Assembly (NCBI GenBank): GCA_001793945.1
Contig: MGIW01000005.1
Location: 57,923 to 121,922, forward strand
Length of the DNA: 64,000 nt
Direction of reading: 5' to 3'
From: Candidatus Wolfebacteria bacterium RIFOXYD12_FULL_48_21
Lineage (GTDB): Bacteria > Patescibacteriota > Minisyncoccia > UBA6257 > UBA9933
Position 1 is the first letter of the stretch, and every line of letters begins with the position of its first letter. Positions 8,365-59,069 of the stretch are shown here, piece after piece. The notes beneath the pieces were generated by a model that did not search any database, was not told the DNA's origin, and saw only the letters and a list, made by a program, of their open reading frames with translations. The position numbers and the translations under genes are program-made.

Positions 8365-8428
8365 TGTCATTCCGGCCCGTTCGTCCGCCAGCTGGCGGAT
8401 CAGGGTAAAACTCCGGCCGGAATCCAGT
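8365..8428. repeat. Palindromic repeat element (GTCATTCC...GGAATCCAG family)
   Basis: tgtcattccggcccgttcgtccgccagctggcggatcagggtaaaactccggccggaatccagt. Confidence 0.8.
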
Positions 8429-13294: not shown

Positions 13295-13497
13295 TGCGCG
13301 CATATGACGGCGAAGTCATGAGTGTAATCGAATGGCGCGCAGTAGAGTACGCCCGATAGGGCGGACACTACTGCGCGCCCTGATCCGCCGGCTGGCGGAC
13401 GAATGGGCGAGCTGTCGAATACGCGCGGTAACCAATGACCGATAACCAATAACTCATAACGGGTAACAAAAAGGCGGGACGCAATGCGTCCCGCTTT

Positions 13498-14149: not shown

Positions 14150-14209
14150 CCCGCATCCAAGGGTCATCCTGATCCGCCAGCCGGCGGATTCAGGATCTCG
14201 TGGCATGAA

Positions 14210-22309: not shown

Positions 22310-24493
22310 ATGAAATTAACAACAAAAGTTGCGCTTATCTTTGGCGGGGGTGCTACCGTAATGATTATGGTCACTTCGTTTTTAATCTTTACTTCAACTC
22401 GCTCGATTCTGAAAAAAAATATCAGCGCTCAGCAAACCATATCCGCCGTTGAGACGATCGACAAGATAGACCGTATATTCAATAATTATCTGCTGACCTT
22501 GCAGACTATGGGAGAAGAGGAGGATCTCGAGCGTTTCTTAGGTGGCGAAAAAAATATTCAACCAGAAATCAATCGGCGCATGCGAGAGCTTACCTTTTTG
22601 ACCGGGCCATGGGATATTCTTTTTGTGGTGGATAGAAACGGTACAATAATTCTTTCGACACGTGCCGATGAGGTCGGTAAATCGATCAAGCAAGAGCCCG
22701 TTAGTAATATCGCGTATGAAAAGGCGCTTGAAGGAGGGACATATTATTCCGGCATGGTCACATCTGAAGATGCTGGGAAGCCGACGGTTATTTTCGCCGC
22801 TCCGATTAAGCAAGAATCAGGTAAAAGGATTGTAGAAGGCGTTATTATAGGGAATATGTCATGGCCGGTCATTTCCGAGGCGTTGCATACCGTTAGTATA
22901 TCGGCTGAGCTTGATCTGTATGACGCCCAAAGCGTGCTCATCGCTACCAATCGGGATGATCCTGCGAATTTATTTACTCGCGATCAAACCGTTGAAAATG
23001 ATAGGCAGAGATATAGGGGGAAACAAAATTCATTTACGACCATCGGAGAGCATGCAGGAGATACCGAGCCATATTTAATAACACATGCCCCCTCATTGGG
23101 TTTCTTGTCGTATAAGGGCAATGGGTGGCTTTTAATTGCCAAAGCGCCAACCAGGGTCGTTTTTGGTCCCGCAACGAGCATTGCATTGAGAACAACTGCA
23201 TTTATGGTGTTGCTCATTATACTAATGATTGGGCTTGTTTCATTTCTTTTTATAAAAATATTTGTGCGCCCTGTCGTCGCAATGACGAATACGGCAGCCG
23301 CCATTGCGAAAGGAGATCTTACGAAGCGCGTTGTCGGGTTGTCGAACGATGAAATAGGTACGCTGGGAAACGAGTTCAATGTGATGACCGAAACATTGAT
23401 CAAAGATGCTGCGCAGATCAGTAGTATATCCGAAGAGTTACGGAAGGAGTTGAATAAAAGCAAAGCACTTATGGAGAGTATTGGCGACGGTGTTGTGGCA
23501 ATCGATCGGGCATGGAATATTGTATTATGGAATAAGACCGCAACGGCAATTTCTGGATGGTCTCAGGGAGAGGCCTTGGGTAAGCCATTCCGCGATGTTG
23601 TAAAATTTATTCGTGAACGCGATCGGGAAGAAAATATTATGTTTATTGAAGAGGCAATGCTGCATAGTAAACCTTTTTCAATGGAAGGTGATACTATTTT
23701 GATAAAAAAGGATGGCAGTGAAATACCGATCAGCGACAGTGCCGCACCGATTATTGAACATGATGGTGTGGTGTCCGGAGCGATCATCATATTCCGGGAT
23801 GCTTCACAGGAGAGGGAGGCACATCGCCTTCATTCCGATTTCGCCTATGCTTCGCATCAAATCCGCACTCCGGTTGCCAAAGCGTTGTGGATGTTGGAAT
23901 CTGCGTTAGATAAAGAAAACGTGCAAGACATTAAGGGGCAGGTGGGTAAAGCATATCAAGCGATCCAGAGCGTAAATAAGTTAAGCGAAGAGCTTATCGA
24001 AGTTTCACGGATAGATCAAAAACAAGTGGCTGTTGAAAAAGACGATGTCGGACTTGGTGATATACTGAGTGGTATCATTAAGGACATGGCTATTAAGGCG
24101 AAGGATAAAGATGTAGCTCTTGAGATCCATAGTATTCCTGAGTCCATGAGAATTACTACAAGCCCTGCATTATTAAAAAAGATACTGCAGGCGCTCATTG
24201 AAAACGCGATTATTTACTGCAAGGAAAAAAGTACGGTTGATATCAATGCAATTATTGATAATAAGGAGTTGTTGATACAGGTGAGTAATATTGGCTTTGG
24301 TATCTTGGGCGAAGATCAGCCCGCCGTCTTTACCAAGTTTTTTAGAGGAAAAAATATTGATACCACGGCAATCGCTGGTGCCGGATTGGGTCTCTATATC
24401 GCAAGAGGATATGCGAAAATTTTAGGCGGTAGAATATGGTTTGATTCGAAAGGAGATAAGATAACATTCTATGTTTCTCTGCCAATCGCATAA
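22310..24493 (+). CDS. Sensor histidine kinase (TM, Cache-like, TM, HAMP, PAS, HisKA, HATPase_c)
   Basis: HAMP region (AIAKGDLTKRV). PAS (IGDGVVAIDRAWNIVLWN). H-box ASHQIRTPV. G-box GAGLGLYIARG. A start at the ATG at 22310 (MKLTTKV) is preferred. Confidence 0.8.
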   Translation: MKLTTKVALIFGGGATVMIMVTSFLIFTSTRSILKKNISAQQTISAVETIDKIDRIFNNYLLTLQTMGEEEDLERFLGGEKNIQPEINRRMRELTFLTGPWDILFVVDRNGTIILSTRADEVGKSIKQEPVSNIAYEKALEGGTYYSGMVTSEDAGKPTVIFAAPIKQESGKRIVEGVIIGNMSWPVISEALHTVSISAELDLYDAQSVLIATNRDDPANLFTRDQTVENDRQRYRGKQNSFTTIGEHAGDTEPYLITHAPSLGFLSYKGNGWLLIAKAPTRVVFGPATSIALRTTAFMVLLIILMIGLVSFLFIKIFVRPVVAMTNTAAAIAKGDLTKRVVGLSNDEIGTLGNEFNVMTETLIKDAAQISSISEELRKELNKSKALMESIGDGVVAIDRAWNIVLWNKTATAISGWSQGEALGKPFRDVVKFIRERDREENIMFIEEAMLHSKPFSMEGDTILIKKDGSEIPISDSAAPIIEHDGVVSGAIIIFRDASQEREAHRLHSDFAYASHQIRTPVAKALWMLESALDKENVQDIKGQVGKAYQAIQSVNKLSEELIEVSRIDQKQVAVEKDDVGLGDILSGIIKDMAIKAKDKDVALEIHSIPESMRITTSPALLKKILQALIENAIIYCKEKSTVDINAIIDNKELLIQVSNIGFGILGEDQPAVFTKFFRGKNIDTTAIAGAGLGLYIARGYAKILGGRIWFDSKGDKITFYVSLPIA

Positions 24494-24542
24494 AAACACA
24501 CAGTACAAAAACCACCGCATCTGCGGTGGTTTTTGTTTTTTG

Positions 24543-24615
24543 TGCACCCCCTGGGAATCGAACCCAGAACCTTGGGCTTAAGAGGCCCCTGCTCTACCAA
24601 TTGAGCTAGAGGTGC
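24543..24615 (-). tRNA. tRNA-Lys (anticodon CTT)
   Basis: Loop CTCTTAA. T-arm GGGTTCGATTCCC. Discriminator A. Confidence 0.75.
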
Positions 24616-24635
24616 GCAATTAACTGATAACTTAT

Positions 24636-24660
24636 AACCTTTAACCTTTAACCTTTAACG
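24636..24660. repeat. Heptamer tandem repeat (ACCTTTA)x3
   Basis: aacctttaacctttaacctttaacg. Confidence 0.7.
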
Positions 24661-24735
24661 CATACATTATAACAACCAGAATGTATTTGCAACTTTGTTA
24701 TAAGTTACTCGTTATTGGTTATTAGTCAAAGGATG

Positions 24736-24809
24736 TGCCCCCGGATGGATTTGAACCATCGACACACTGCTTAAAAGGCAGGTGCTCTACCAGGCTGAGC
24801 TACAGGGGC
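24736..24809 (-). tRNA. tRNA-Lys (anticodon TTT)
   Basis: Loop CTTTTAA. Acceptor GCCCCTG/CGGGGGC. T-arm GATGGTTCAAATCCATC. Confidence 0.85.
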
Positions 24810-24925
24810 GTATAGGTAACTTACAACAAATAACATATGACCTATAACAGATACTTTATAATAATCAGTGTCTGTTTGCAACCTTTGTTATTAGTCATGT
24901 GTTATTGGTTATTAGTCAAAGGATG

Positions 24926-25082
24926 TGCACCCGGAGGGACTCGCCCGCGACTCCATTATGCGTCGTCGCGCGTAATGGGTCTGGGCACCGACTCGCGTGT
25001 GCCATCTGATGGTGCTCCGCCAACTGGCGGATCCGTCGTTCGAGTCCCTCGCGTGGGCAAAGCAGTTTGCCCACTCGGGTAC
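24926..25082 (-). pseudogene. tRNA-Arg 3'-end duplicate / tRNA-like remnant with embedded palindromic-repeat hairpins
   Basis: The last about 18 nt (GAGTCCCTCCGGGTGCAC) nearly match the 3' end of the intact tRNA-Arg at 25106-25179. It is preceded by the same ~55-nt trailer that follows tRNA-Lys(TTT). No canonical cloverleaf can be drawn. Confidence 0.45.
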
Positions 25083-25105
25083 ACAAAAAATAATTGTATT
25101 TTTTG

Positions 25106-25179
25106 TGCACCCGGAGGGATTCGAACCCCCAACCGACTGCTTCGAAGGCAGCTACTCTATCCAATTGAGCTACGGGTGC
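25106..25179 (-). tRNA. tRNA-Arg (anticodon TCG)
   Basis: Acceptor GCACCCG/CGGGTGC. Loop CTTCGAA. T-arm GGGGGTTCGAATCCCTC. Confidence 0.85.
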
Positions 25180-25262
25180 ATTGTTTTAAGTTTTCCGTTC
25201 GTATAGTGTATAATGGAAATCAACAAAAGACAAGATTCGTCAAGGAAATACAAGCTCTATGT

Positions 25263-25380
25263 TGTCATTCCGAGTGGAGCGGTACTCCGTGGAGTCGAGG
25301 AATCTGCCGTATAACATCAGATCCCTCTCCGCCGGCTGGCGGATCGGGATGACAATGCAAAGGGCTCGGGATGACAATGC
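25263..25380. repeat. Composite palindromic repeat element
   Basis: tgtcattccgagtggagcgg...ccgccggctggcggatcgggatgacaatgc. Confidence 0.8.
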
Positions 25381-25386
25381 AAATTC

Positions 25387-26859
25387 ATGCGGAAAAAGGA
25401 AACAAAACAGTTCGAAATACCCAAAGAAGCGCGCGCCATTTGCGCGGTCTTGAAATTGGCAGGGCATGAGGCATATTTGGTCGGCGGGTGCGTACGCGAT
25501 ATGATCGCGGGCATCGAGCCGAAGGATTGGGATATAACCACAAGCGCCCGCCCGGAACAAATACAGGAATTGTTTCCGGAGCATGTATATGAAAACAATT
25601 TTGGAACGGTCGCGGTAAAAACGGAAAGCGAAGATCCGAAGCTTAAGATCGTCGAGGTAACGACATTTCGTATCGAAGGAAAATATTCCGACAAGCGGCA
25701 CCCGGACGAAGTGAAGTTTGCAGACAAGGTGGAAGACGACCTCTCTCGCCGCGATTTTACCGTGAATGCCATGGCGTATGATATAGATGCAAATGAAGTC
25801 ATTGATCCGTATGGTGGCCGTGAAGATTTGGACGCCAAGGTGTTACGGACGGTCGGCGATCCGAACAAGCGTTTTGAGGAAGATGCGCTTCGTCTGATGC
25901 GCGCCGTGCGCTTTGCTGCGGAGTTTGGTTTTACGATTGAGGAATATACCGAGCAGGCATTGCAGAAAAATGCAGGCTTGTTGGAAATGATCGCCAAGGA
26001 GCGTATTCGTGACGAATTTATCAAGATCATTATAACCGCAAAGGCAGTGGAGGGAGTGGAGGAGTTGGAACGCACGGGGTTGTTGCGTTTTGTTATGCCG
26101 GAACTGCGCGACGGCATCGGCGTGGGGCAGAACGAGCACCATATCTATTCCGTGTGGGAACACAATCTTAAATCGCTCGAATACGCGGTAAAAAAGGACT
26201 ATGCGTTGGAGATACGACTTGCCGCGCTGTTGCACGATGTGGGAAAGCCGCGCACAAAAGCGGGCAACGGAAAAACATCGACATTTTATAACCATGAAAT
26301 GGCTGGCGCGCGCATTGCGGCGCGCATGCTGGATCGTTTGCATGTGCCGAAGCATATTGCCGAATCCATCATCCACCTTATTCGTTACCACATGTTTTAT
26401 TACAATGTGGGCGAAGTAAGCGCAGCAGGCGTGCGACGGTTTTTGGCGCGGGTCGGTCCCGAGTCGATCGATGACCTGATCAAAGTGCGCGAGGCGGACC
26501 GCATCGGTTCCGGCGTGCCCAAGGCGGTGCCGTACAAACTGCGTCACTTGCTGTTTATGATAGAAAAGGTAAAACGCGACCCTATTTCCCCGAAGATGCT
26601 CAAGATCAACGGAGAAGAGATCATGGAGTTGCTTGCCATCAAGCCGGGTCCGAAAGTGGGAAAGATACTTGCGGTATTGCTCGAAGAGGTTATCGAGGAT
26701 CCGTTCAAAAACGAACAGGTGCTATTGAAGCGTCGCGTTGAACAGCTAAACGAAATGGAAGAAGAAGAGCTTGCCGCCATGGTAAAAAAGGCAAAAGAAA
26801 CTAAGGACGAATTCGAAGAAGGTGTTGAGCAGAGCATGAAAAAACAGTTTCATGTGTGA
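25387..26859 (+). CDS. cca: CCA-adding tRNA nucleotidyltransferase with HD domain
   Basis: PolyA-polymerase head domain LVGGCVRD...DWDITT. HD motif LLHDVGKP. Confidence 0.8.
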   Translation: MRKKETKQFEIPKEARAICAVLKLAGHEAYLVGGCVRDMIAGIEPKDWDITTSARPEQIQELFPEHVYENNFGTVAVKTESEDPKLKIVEVTTFRIEGKYSDKRHPDEVKFADKVEDDLSRRDFTVNAMAYDIDANEVIDPYGGREDLDAKVLRTVGDPNKRFEEDALRLMRAVRFAAEFGFTIEEYTEQALQKNAGLLEMIAKERIRDEFIKIIITAKAVEGVEELERTGLLRFVMPELRDGIGVGQNEHHIYSVWEHNLKSLEYAVKKDYALEIRLAALLHDVGKPRTKAGNGKTSTFYNHEMAGARIAARMLDRLHVPKHIAESIIHLIRYHMFYYNVGEVSAAGVRRFLARVGPESIDDLIKVREADRIGSGVPKAVPYKLRHLLFMIEKVKRDPISPKMLKINGEEIMELLAIKPGPKVGKILAVLLEEVIEDPFKNEQVLLKRRVEQLNEMEEEELAAMVKKAKETKDEFEEGVEQSMKKQFHV

Positions 26860-30101: not shown

Positions 30102-30845
30102 ATGAAAGTCATTCCAACAATTAACTGCACCGCATTCGCCTGTGTAAAAAAGCGCATAGAAGAAGCGCAAACTTTTTTGCCCAAATCCGCCAGTGGGCGG
30201 AGGTGGCTGCAAATAGATGTGAGTGACGGCAAGTTTAGTGAGTTTGTGTCATCCCCGCCCTCCTCTCTGTCATCCCGGCGAAAGCCGGGATCCACTACTA
30301 ATACCCGCGGAGCGCACGATAGCAGTCCAAAAAGCTGGAACAACCCCGAAAAGCTGGCGGCGTGGCTGAAAGAAAAAAAGATAACCGACATCAATTTTGA
30401 AATACACCTTATGGTAGTAGACCCGAAGCCGTGGGTCATGCGGTGGTTCGAGGCGGGCGCAAAGCGCGTCATCGTGCATGTCGAGGCAATCACCCCGCAG
30501 GACATTCTGTTTTTAAAAGGGTTTGGAAAGGGAAAGGTGGGTATTGCACTGGTTCCGGCAACGCCGCTCAAAAAAGCGGAAAAATATTTGGAGCATTTTC
30601 CATTTGTGCAGCTACTCGCAGTGAAGCCGGGCTATTCGGGACAAAGGTTCGATAGGAAGGTGCTCGAAAAGATCGTGTTTCTGAAAGCGCTCCACCCCGA
30701 TAGTATCGTAGAAATAGACGGGGGAGTGAACGCGACCACCGCACCGGCGATCAAAGACGCGGGCGCCGACATCATCGTTTCCGGTTCGTATATCTTCGAA
30801 GCCAAAGACAAAAAAGCAGCGTACAAGGAATTGAAGAAGATTTAA
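30102..30845 (+). CDS. Ribulose-phosphate 3-epimerase family protein (divergent), carrying an in-frame repeat-element insertion
   Basis: IPTI...IDVSDGKF, HLMVVDP and IDGGVN...SGSYIF align with RPE motifs. The catalytic His in DxxDGHF is replaced by Lys. The segment 30247-30300 is a copy of the palindromic repeat. Confidence 0.5.
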   Translation: MKVIPTINCTAFACVKKRIEEAQTFLPKSASGRRWLQIDVSDGKFSEFVSSPPSSLSSRRKPGSTTNTRGAHDSSPKSWNNPEKLAAWLKEKKITDINFEIHLMVVDPKPWVMRWFEAGAKRVIVHVEAITPQDILFLKGFGKGKVGIALVPATPLKKAEKYLEHFPFVQLLAVKPGYSGQRFDRKVLEKIVFLKALHPDSIVEIDGGVNATTAPAIKDAGADIIVSGSYIFEAKDKKAAYKELKKI

Positions 30846-51593: not shown

Positions 51594-51673
51594 TGTCATT
51601 CTGATCCGCCAGCCGGCGGATTCAGAATCTGATTGATATCGCTAAGAGATCCTGAAATAAATTCAGGATGACA
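51594..51673. repeat. Palindromic repeat element
   Basis: ttgtcattctgatccgccagccggcggattcagaatctg...tcaggatgacag. Confidence 0.75.
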
Positions 51674-58845: not shown

Positions 58846-59069
58846 TCTTGCGATGCAAACCGCCTGTGAGGGGCGGTTCTGTATGCCAGTGTAGCTTCGT
58901 TGCGACTTGCCGTTGCTAGTGATCCGCCAGCGGGCGGAGAATGTGCAACGCGGCGGAGTGTCGGTTGCGCATTCGTTTTTCGCGCAACCGACGAGAGCAC
59001 TGTGCCCGACAGGGCGCTTGCGAATAGCGAACAGAGAGGAGCATTGAAAATTTGGAAAGCGGGGTAATT

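Follow-up and report, generated by a model that had tools for sequence, protein, structure and literature searches.

A structured element inserted in the tail of a tRNA-Arg gene of Candidatus Wolfebacteria

In the genome of Candidatus Wolfebacteria bacterium RIFOXYD12_FULL_48_21 (GCA_001793945.1, contig MGIW01000005.1), a partial copy of a tRNA-Arg 3' end lies downstream of the intact gene, which raises the question of whether it is a scar of integration, a dead tRNA or part of something else. The original prediction, made from sequence alone, offered the first two possibilities. Within the 64,000-nt stretch that we analysed (the window), the minus strand carries tRNA-Arg(UCG) at 25179-25105, tRNA-Lys(UUU) at 24809-24735 and tRNA-Lys(CUU) at 24615-24542, followed by a strong bidirectional terminator at 24536-24505. 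The 18-mer GAGTCCCTCCGGGTGCAC lies on the minus strand at 24925-24942, one base from where it had been placed, and matches the 3' end of the working tRNA-Arg at 25105-25122 in 17 of 18 positions, against 0.01 matches expected by chance. Adding C56 gives 19-nt repeats at 24925-24943 and 25105-25123, exactly 180 bp apart. The predicted duplication of the trailer is also real (57 nt at 88% plus 69 nt at 74%, with a 189-190 nt period), and the observation as a whole is thus confirmed.

We next examined the 161 nt between the repeats (24944-25104). As had been set as a test beforehand, tRNA models were run over this stretch: ARAGORN found nothing between 24810 and 25104, and the Rfam tRNA model gave no hit there at E<=10, in agreement with the prediction that the hairpins of this stretch give no cloverleaf. 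By contrast, the working tRNA-Arg was found by ARAGORN and scored 69.4 bits with the Rfam model. What had been missed is that the 5' end of the intervening stretch is complementary to the fragment, so that the whole of 24925-25084 closes into a very stable predicted fold (-89.6 kcal/mol, z = -6.9 against shuffles). The palindromic-repeat core noted in the original prediction, CCGCC..GGCGGAT, is a dispersed hairpin, (A/C)TCCGCCNNCTGGCGGAT(C), with 8 copies in the window (8383-8401, 13382-13400, 14171-14189, 25015-25033, 25327-25345, 30184-30202, 51603-51621 and 58921-58939) against 0.02 expected. It is often nested inside larger palindromes of the GATCCTGA...TCAGGATGAC type, and one copy is nested in the stretch between the repeats.

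The neighbouring CCA-adding enzyme gene, at 25387-26859, places the window in Candidatus Wolfebacteria. Comparison with relatives (L numbers denote the loci compared) revealed empty sites. Strain L004 encodes a CCA-adding enzyme identical to that encoded beside the window's tRNA-Arg, and its flanks are 99.8-100% identical; L010 encodes a 98%-identical enzyme. Both lack the 180 bp, and in both the same trailer runs straight into an intact tRNA-Arg whose T-loop reads GAGUCC, exactly as in the displaced fragment, whereas the working gene of the window reads GAAUCC. The displaced copy matches the tRNA-Arg of L010 and L004 over all 19 positions. The fragment is therefore the native 3' end of tRNA-Arg, still attached to its native trailer (24810-24924, minus strand), which is homologous to the tRNA-Lys(UUU) trailer at 24616-24734. 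Because the trailer similarity is also present in relatives that lack the insertion, it is an old feature of the Arg-Lys-Lys array that predates the insertion and is unrelated to it. The A59 allele of the working gene occurs only in strains that carry the element. The 143-nt trailer next to the element differs from L004 at 7 positions, while 2427 and 4756 nt of flank differ at 0 and 10, and the L004 trailer shares its alleles with L010, suggesting that the element-bearing segment was imported by homologous recombination. The direction of change is inferred from parsimony only (G59 is the state in L004, L010 and L012), as precise deletion between the repeats would give the same empty site. A separate insertion of about 60 bp next to the 5' end of tRNA-Lys(UUU), at 2536-2595 of L004 and the same place in L005, is also polymorphic among near-identical strains; it carries the CCGCC hairpin and is flanked by a 12-nt direct repeat ACAGGGGCRTAT (the first 8 nt of the tRNA plus 4 nt of leader), and the empty site in the window is near 24810-24821. 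All four combinations of the two indels exist, indicating that recombination or precise loss also occurs.

Read on the tRNA-sense (minus) strand, the locus can be divided into the following parts. The working tRNA-Arg (25105-25179) ends in the first repeat copy (25105-25123, tRNA positions 56-74), which carries A at T-loop position 59. It is followed by an A/T-only palindromic spacer AAAAAAUACAAUUAUUUUUU (25085-25104), where other members of the family described below have a G+C-stemmed palindromic terminator hairpin; no terminator was called here. The P1 5' strand GUGUACCCG (25076-25084) is complementary to the acceptor 3' strand of the displaced copy (9 pairs, one G-U). The P2 hairpin GUGGGCAAA-CUGC-UUUGCCCAC (25053-25074) is a conserved module of the GCAAAcugcUUUGC type that splits the arm in about half of the family and also appears in L101, L109, L137, L139, L159 and L178. 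The P3 5' strand GAGGGACUCG plus AAC (25038-25050) is the reverse complement of tRNA positions 53-65; since GAGGG complements CCCUC, it is not a direct copy of the tRNA's GGGGG. The conserved core (24944-25037), a three-way junction, comprises P4 CGAC/GUCG, a variable hairpin carrying the nested CCGCC..GGCGG hairpin (25015-25033), the invariant CGGUGCCCAGACC (24978-24990), the P6 hairpin with a CGACGA loop (about 24954-24977) and GAGUCGCGGG (24944-24953). The second repeat copy (24925-24943, positions 56-74, ancestral G59) forms the 3' strands of P3 and P1.

The element is one of a family. L042, a different species whose tRNA-Arg has a different acceptor sequence, carries a 70%-identical element at the same place with an exact 19-nt copy of its own tRNA end. 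A search pattern taken only from the conserved core retrieved more than 119 metagenome loci, of which about 50 are true members, and the core recurs in about 70 loci overall. Of 52 candidates, 36 have a same-strand tRNA ending 61-134 nt upstream of the core motif; most of the others are cut by contig ends or lie in pile-ups, one follows a tmRNA, and six show no tRNA. The host tRNAs cover Arg, Phe, Ser, Gly, Glu, Asn, Thr, Gln, Ala, Leu, Cys, Val, Tyr, Pro and Lys. The 3' end of the element is an exact 19-nt copy of positions 56-74 of its tRNA in ten of these loci. The 5' arm is the reverse complement of positions 53-74, perfect (22/22) in L162, split by P2 in the window and about half of the members, and internally deleted in others. 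In L103, where the tRNA has an unusual T54-C55, the arm reads GAC instead of AAC, a single case of complementarity outside the duplicated segment. Between the tRNA and the arm, most members have a long palindromic intrinsic terminator, of which the window has only the A/T flanks. We define family I by a core CGNC-GGAG..GAG-N'CG-GUGCCCAGACC..hairpin..GAGUCGMGGG, lying between an arm complementary to tRNA positions 53-65+ and a copy of 56-74, directly behind that tRNA. The window copy aligns to the family model over its full length (84.1 bits), but is in the model's seed, and independent support comes instead from the blastn match to L042 and the core pattern shared with about 50 loci.

On an alignment of 48 members, 88.8% of cells in the proposed helices are paired, against 31-44% when partners are slid, and there are 249 cells with compensatory changes, against 40-71 in the controls. 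The search pattern forced invariance at CGGUGCCCAGACC and GAGUCG; however, a divergent copy found later with the covariance model changes CCC/GGG to GCU/AGC and GACC/GUC to GAUU/AAUC, a compensatory change in the otherwise invariant helix. G-U pairs in the two variable hairpins number 34 on the tRNA-sense strand against 13 on the antisense strand, and the sense strand is more stable in 42 of 48 members.

The family model finds one copy in the window, five in 571 kb of Patescibacteria loci, and several on single contigs elsewhere, for example three in 14 kb of L197. Copies sharing a contig are no more alike than copies from different contigs (0.64 against 0.68), giving no sign of recent transposition bursts or of recent spread within a genome. 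No transposase, integrase, recombinase or reverse transcriptase recurs within +-4 kb of 46 other members, whose neighbours are housekeeping genes, and the genes flanking the window copy that were scanned are a histidine kinase and a CCA-adding enzyme. The core was not found in phage or plasmid records, and all 8 pattern hits in viral contigs are chance matches in G+C-rich coding DNA. In an unbiased set of 216 tRNAs, 14 (about 6% of the sampled Patescibacteria tRNA genes) have a copy of their own 3' end within 260 nt downstream, against one in the upstream control. Only about five of these carry this core; others carry a second conserved core between the same kind of arms, or a plain 31-nt partial duplication.

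Rfam 15 has no matching family: searches at gathering thresholds on 12 member loci, and at E<=10 on the window and 7 further loci, gave only tRNAs, one tmRNA and noise. Our literature search found no paper holding the core sequence and no description of small elements targeting tRNA T-loops; a paper on Patescibacteria tRNA introns concerns anticodon-loop group I introns and is unrelated. The one close analogue is RtT RNA/rttR (RF00391), the 178-bp repeats of the E. coli tyrT-tyrV operon, whose mode of action is still called unknown (bioRxiv 10.1101/2024.07.17.603846; PMC3318445). Behind tyrV there are 3.14 units of 178 nt, directly 3' of the tRNA gene on the same strand, each ending in a 19-nt copy of the tRNA-Tyr 3' end and each containing GGGGAAGGAU, the reverse complement of the T-arm 3' half. 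This segment forms the closing helix of the Rfam consensus (GgGaaGG.U / AUCCuuCcC), with the acceptor 3' strand following, as P3 (GAGGGACUCG/CGAGUCCCUC) does in the window. The annotated 171-nt rttR ends at the CCA of the copy. Subfamily members L100, L137 and L172 share GGAUGAGAAC with RtT letter for letter. Nonetheless, homology is not detectable in either direction: RF00391 (gathering threshold 45 bits), which gives 134-138 bits on E. coli, gives no match at E<=10 on window positions 24300-25500 or on seven CPR member loci, and the CPR model gives no hit on E. coli. The core differs; the copy spans positions 58-76 with CCA in E. coli and 56-74 here; and in E. coli the arm covers only positions 59-68, there is no terminator palindrome, and only tRNA-Tyr is involved. 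The window holds a single unit, although tandem or partial units occur in other members (1.3 units in L213, and L152). The relationship is therefore architectural and not shown to be homologous.

With moderate confidence, we interpret positions 24944-25104, together with the flanking repeats, as one copy of a small (about 125-205 nt), non-coding, structured element family that lives on the 3' ends of tRNA and tmRNA genes in Patescibacteria. The analysis itself establishes the membership in a tRNA-linked family, the insertion between U55 and C56, which leaves the tRNA intact because the element supplies a replacement 3' end (positions 56-74) while the native end is left downstream, and the conserved fold on the sense strand. 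The remainder is inferred from sequence alone, without expression data. In this view the element works as a tRNA-sense RNA, which in the window would be co-transcribed with tRNA-Arg, as no terminator separates them. The arm would pair with the displaced 3' end in a stacked helix mimicking the acceptor and T stems of its own tRNA; the transcript would be trimmed at a tRNA-like 3' end and probably given CCA, as the annotated ends of rttR imply for RtT; and the core is probably a protein- or RNA-binding module. Against this, most members have a strong intrinsic terminator between the tRNA and the element and no recognisable promoter of their own. More weakly, we infer that the element behaves as a selfish or semi-selfish passenger, which in this strain seems to have arrived by homologous recombination with the conserved tRNA as the left homology arm. 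The proposed RNA resembles tRNA-like RNAs matured by tRNA enzymes (the tmRNA tRNA-like domain, mascRNA, viral 3' tRNA-like structures) in its stack of acceptor-like and T-stem-like helices without an anticodon arm and in a 3' end identical to that of a tRNA, but a 94-nt junction core replaces the T-loop, and none of these Rfam families hits above noise.

A DNA-level element is possible but less likely. The tRNA-end, palindrome and inverted-arm structure and the core would then function as folded single-stranded DNA or a cruciform, either as a recombination site mimicking the duplex tRNA-gene end or as a REP/MITE-like repeat, and no RNA product would matter. Long near-perfect palindromes centre on the spacer, a terminator blocks tRNA-sense read-through in most members, the family is multi-copy and dispersed, presence varies between strains, and covariation and G-T wobble pairs are also compatible with a folded DNA strand. 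However, the E. coli counterpart is annotated as an RNA whose ends match the unit, the strand asymmetry in G-U pairs fits RNA best, no recombinase is associated, and the element lacks conserved termini of its own, its left part varying freely. In CTX-phage attP(+) and integron attC, two inverted copies of a target-like sequence separated by roughly 90 nt can fold into a hairpin imitating the duplex target; here the intervening 90 nt are conserved and covary, no Xer- or IntI-type partner is known, and, when top- and bottom-strand exchange models were worked through by hand, only insertion of the tRNA-sense strand reproduced the observed order. This is a resemblance, not a tested relationship. 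Like REP, REPIN, MITE and Rickettsia palindromic elements, the element is small, non-coding, palindrome-rich, multi-copy and variable between strains, and can sit inside RNA genes, but it has no terminal inverted repeats of its own and no short fixed target duplication (the duplication is 19 nt), its inverted repeat is made of target tRNA sequence, and its association with tRNA 3' ends is near-exclusive.

The junction also has a group-I-like look, which we keep as a lead only: the arm is complementary to both sides of the insertion point (AUUCG|AAC against GUU|CGAAU), as an internal guide sequence would be, the element ends in G, and the insertion follows U55. The core is, however, far too small for a group I intron, no Rfam intron family hits it, the pair at the junction is A-U and not G-U, and the tRNA-Arg is already complete upstream without splicing. 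A hammerhead or HDV-type ribozyme gained no Rfam hit and no conserved catalytic-core motifs were recognised, and a primer-binding site is disfavoured because, judged by eye, the arm does not extend over CCA.

Unlikely, too, is a vertically inherited small-RNA gene with a cellular function, not mobile at all and lost in most relatives by deletion between the repeats. Copies within a contig are old and diverged, cores are under purifying and compensatory selection, deletion between direct repeats yields a perfect empty site, and gene conversion from the adjacent tRNA could keep the repeat identical. Yet the same core is found behind tRNAs of at least 15 amino-acid types and a tmRNA, which requires movement at some time; only 2 of 49 tRNA-Arg(UCG)-cca loci carry it; the distribution of G59 makes gain in the window lineage more parsimonious; and the element-bearing haplotype carries a local cluster of foreign SNPs.

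The interpretation in the original prediction is partly supported: DNA was indeed inserted into the 3' end of tRNA-Arg, but neither of its specific readings holds. A direct repeat of the tRNA 3' end starting in the T-loop, with the gene restored by an element-supplied end, is the classic signature of integrase-mediated islands and prophages in tRNA and tmRNA genes, and an island whose interior was deleted, leaving attL and attR, would produce it. This is very unlikely here, as the 161 nt align end to end with about 70 elements of the same size at other tRNAs, the insert holds no genes and no integrase, none recurs near other members, the core is absent from the phage and plasmid records searched, and an internal arm complementary to the repeat is not a feature of att sites. 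A decayed fourth tRNA broken up by palindromic repeats is rejected, for although the stretch occupies a tRNA-sized slot with a tRNA-type trailer, acceptor-like and T-stem-like helices and a nested repeat hairpin, it has no D or anticodon arm, close relatives have only the three-tRNA array with the trailer joined directly to tRNA-Arg, and its interior is a conserved non-tRNA core shared with elements behind many other tRNAs.

RtT has been an orphan curiosity of E. coli for over forty years. Here its design, the tRNA's own 3' end, an arm complementary to it and a structured core in between, appears as a large, covarying, multi-copy family in a distant phylum, plus a second family with a different core, which makes RtT-type elements a comparative problem that can be tested rather than a one-off. 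Annotation gains a new RNA family and loses a 171-aa ORF with no Pfam match (24837-25352, plus strand) that several public assemblies, though not the NCBI record, call antisense across the element and tRNA-Arg, and which is almost certainly spurious. Tools that use tRNA 3' fragments to delimit genomic islands should expect such fragments from 0.2-kb elements as well. A more speculative and, on present evidence, doubtful possibility is that both families, and possibly E. coli RtT, form a previously unrecognised class of RNA modules that graft themselves onto tRNA genes, each carrying a 22-nt guide-like arm spanning the T-loop insertion point and reusing the tRNA's own 3' end as its terminus. 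This would be either a new RNA-guided way of targeting tRNA genes or a natural 'tRNA scaffold' by which reduced-genome bacteria make and stabilise small RNAs.

The second family, seen at about 5173-5300 of L031 and also in L033, L020, L045, L051 (tRNA-Pro CGG), L015 (tRNA-Ala) and L051 (tRNA-Lys), has the same inverted arm (..GGAATCGAAC) and a direct copy of the tRNA end (here from G53, about 22 nt), but an unrelated conserved core GGGAAAGGGGTCGGGAAAAC..GTTTTCCCGTGGCGGAA..GACGTTC, indicating that the architecture is shared by different cores. Pile-ups at single tRNAs are of two types. Downstream of tRNA-Pro(CGG) in L015, L046 and L052, and in the upstream units of L121 and L215, we observed either a terminator plus tggctccgYaggaggt plus a 31-nt copy of the tRNA 3' part, or tandem units with still other cores (a long hairpin followed by a CUCC-UGUA-GGAG-like hairpin) ahead of a family I unit. 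At 2824-2987 of L100 (minus strand), a sub-threshold Rfam match to the Xanthomonas sRNA sX4 (35 bits, E = 4e-4) covers a tRNA-Ser plus the spacer ahead of a family I element, and sX4 might be another tRNA-linked RNA.

In the window, both tRNA spacers (24616-24734 and 24810-24924, minus strand) contain TTGCAA-N17-TAATGT / TAAAGT, which looks like a promoter about 35 nt ahead of each tRNA-Lys, although these sites fall below the threshold of the promoter scan; each tRNA may be its own transcription unit. Between tRNA-Arg and the CCA-enzyme gene, nested palindromic repeats (GTCATTCCGAG...CTCGGGATGAC, with a tandem GGMTCGGGATGACAATGCAAA) lie at 25259-25383, and the corresponding stretch in L010 holds different hairpin modules, so this intergenic region turns over fast. 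Among the 80 Patescibacteria loci fetched with the CCA-adding enzyme (L010-L089), a tRNA-Arg(UCG) gene was found within the ~3-kb flank of the enzyme gene in about 45, a conserved synteny between a tRNA and the enzyme that completes CCA-less tRNAs.
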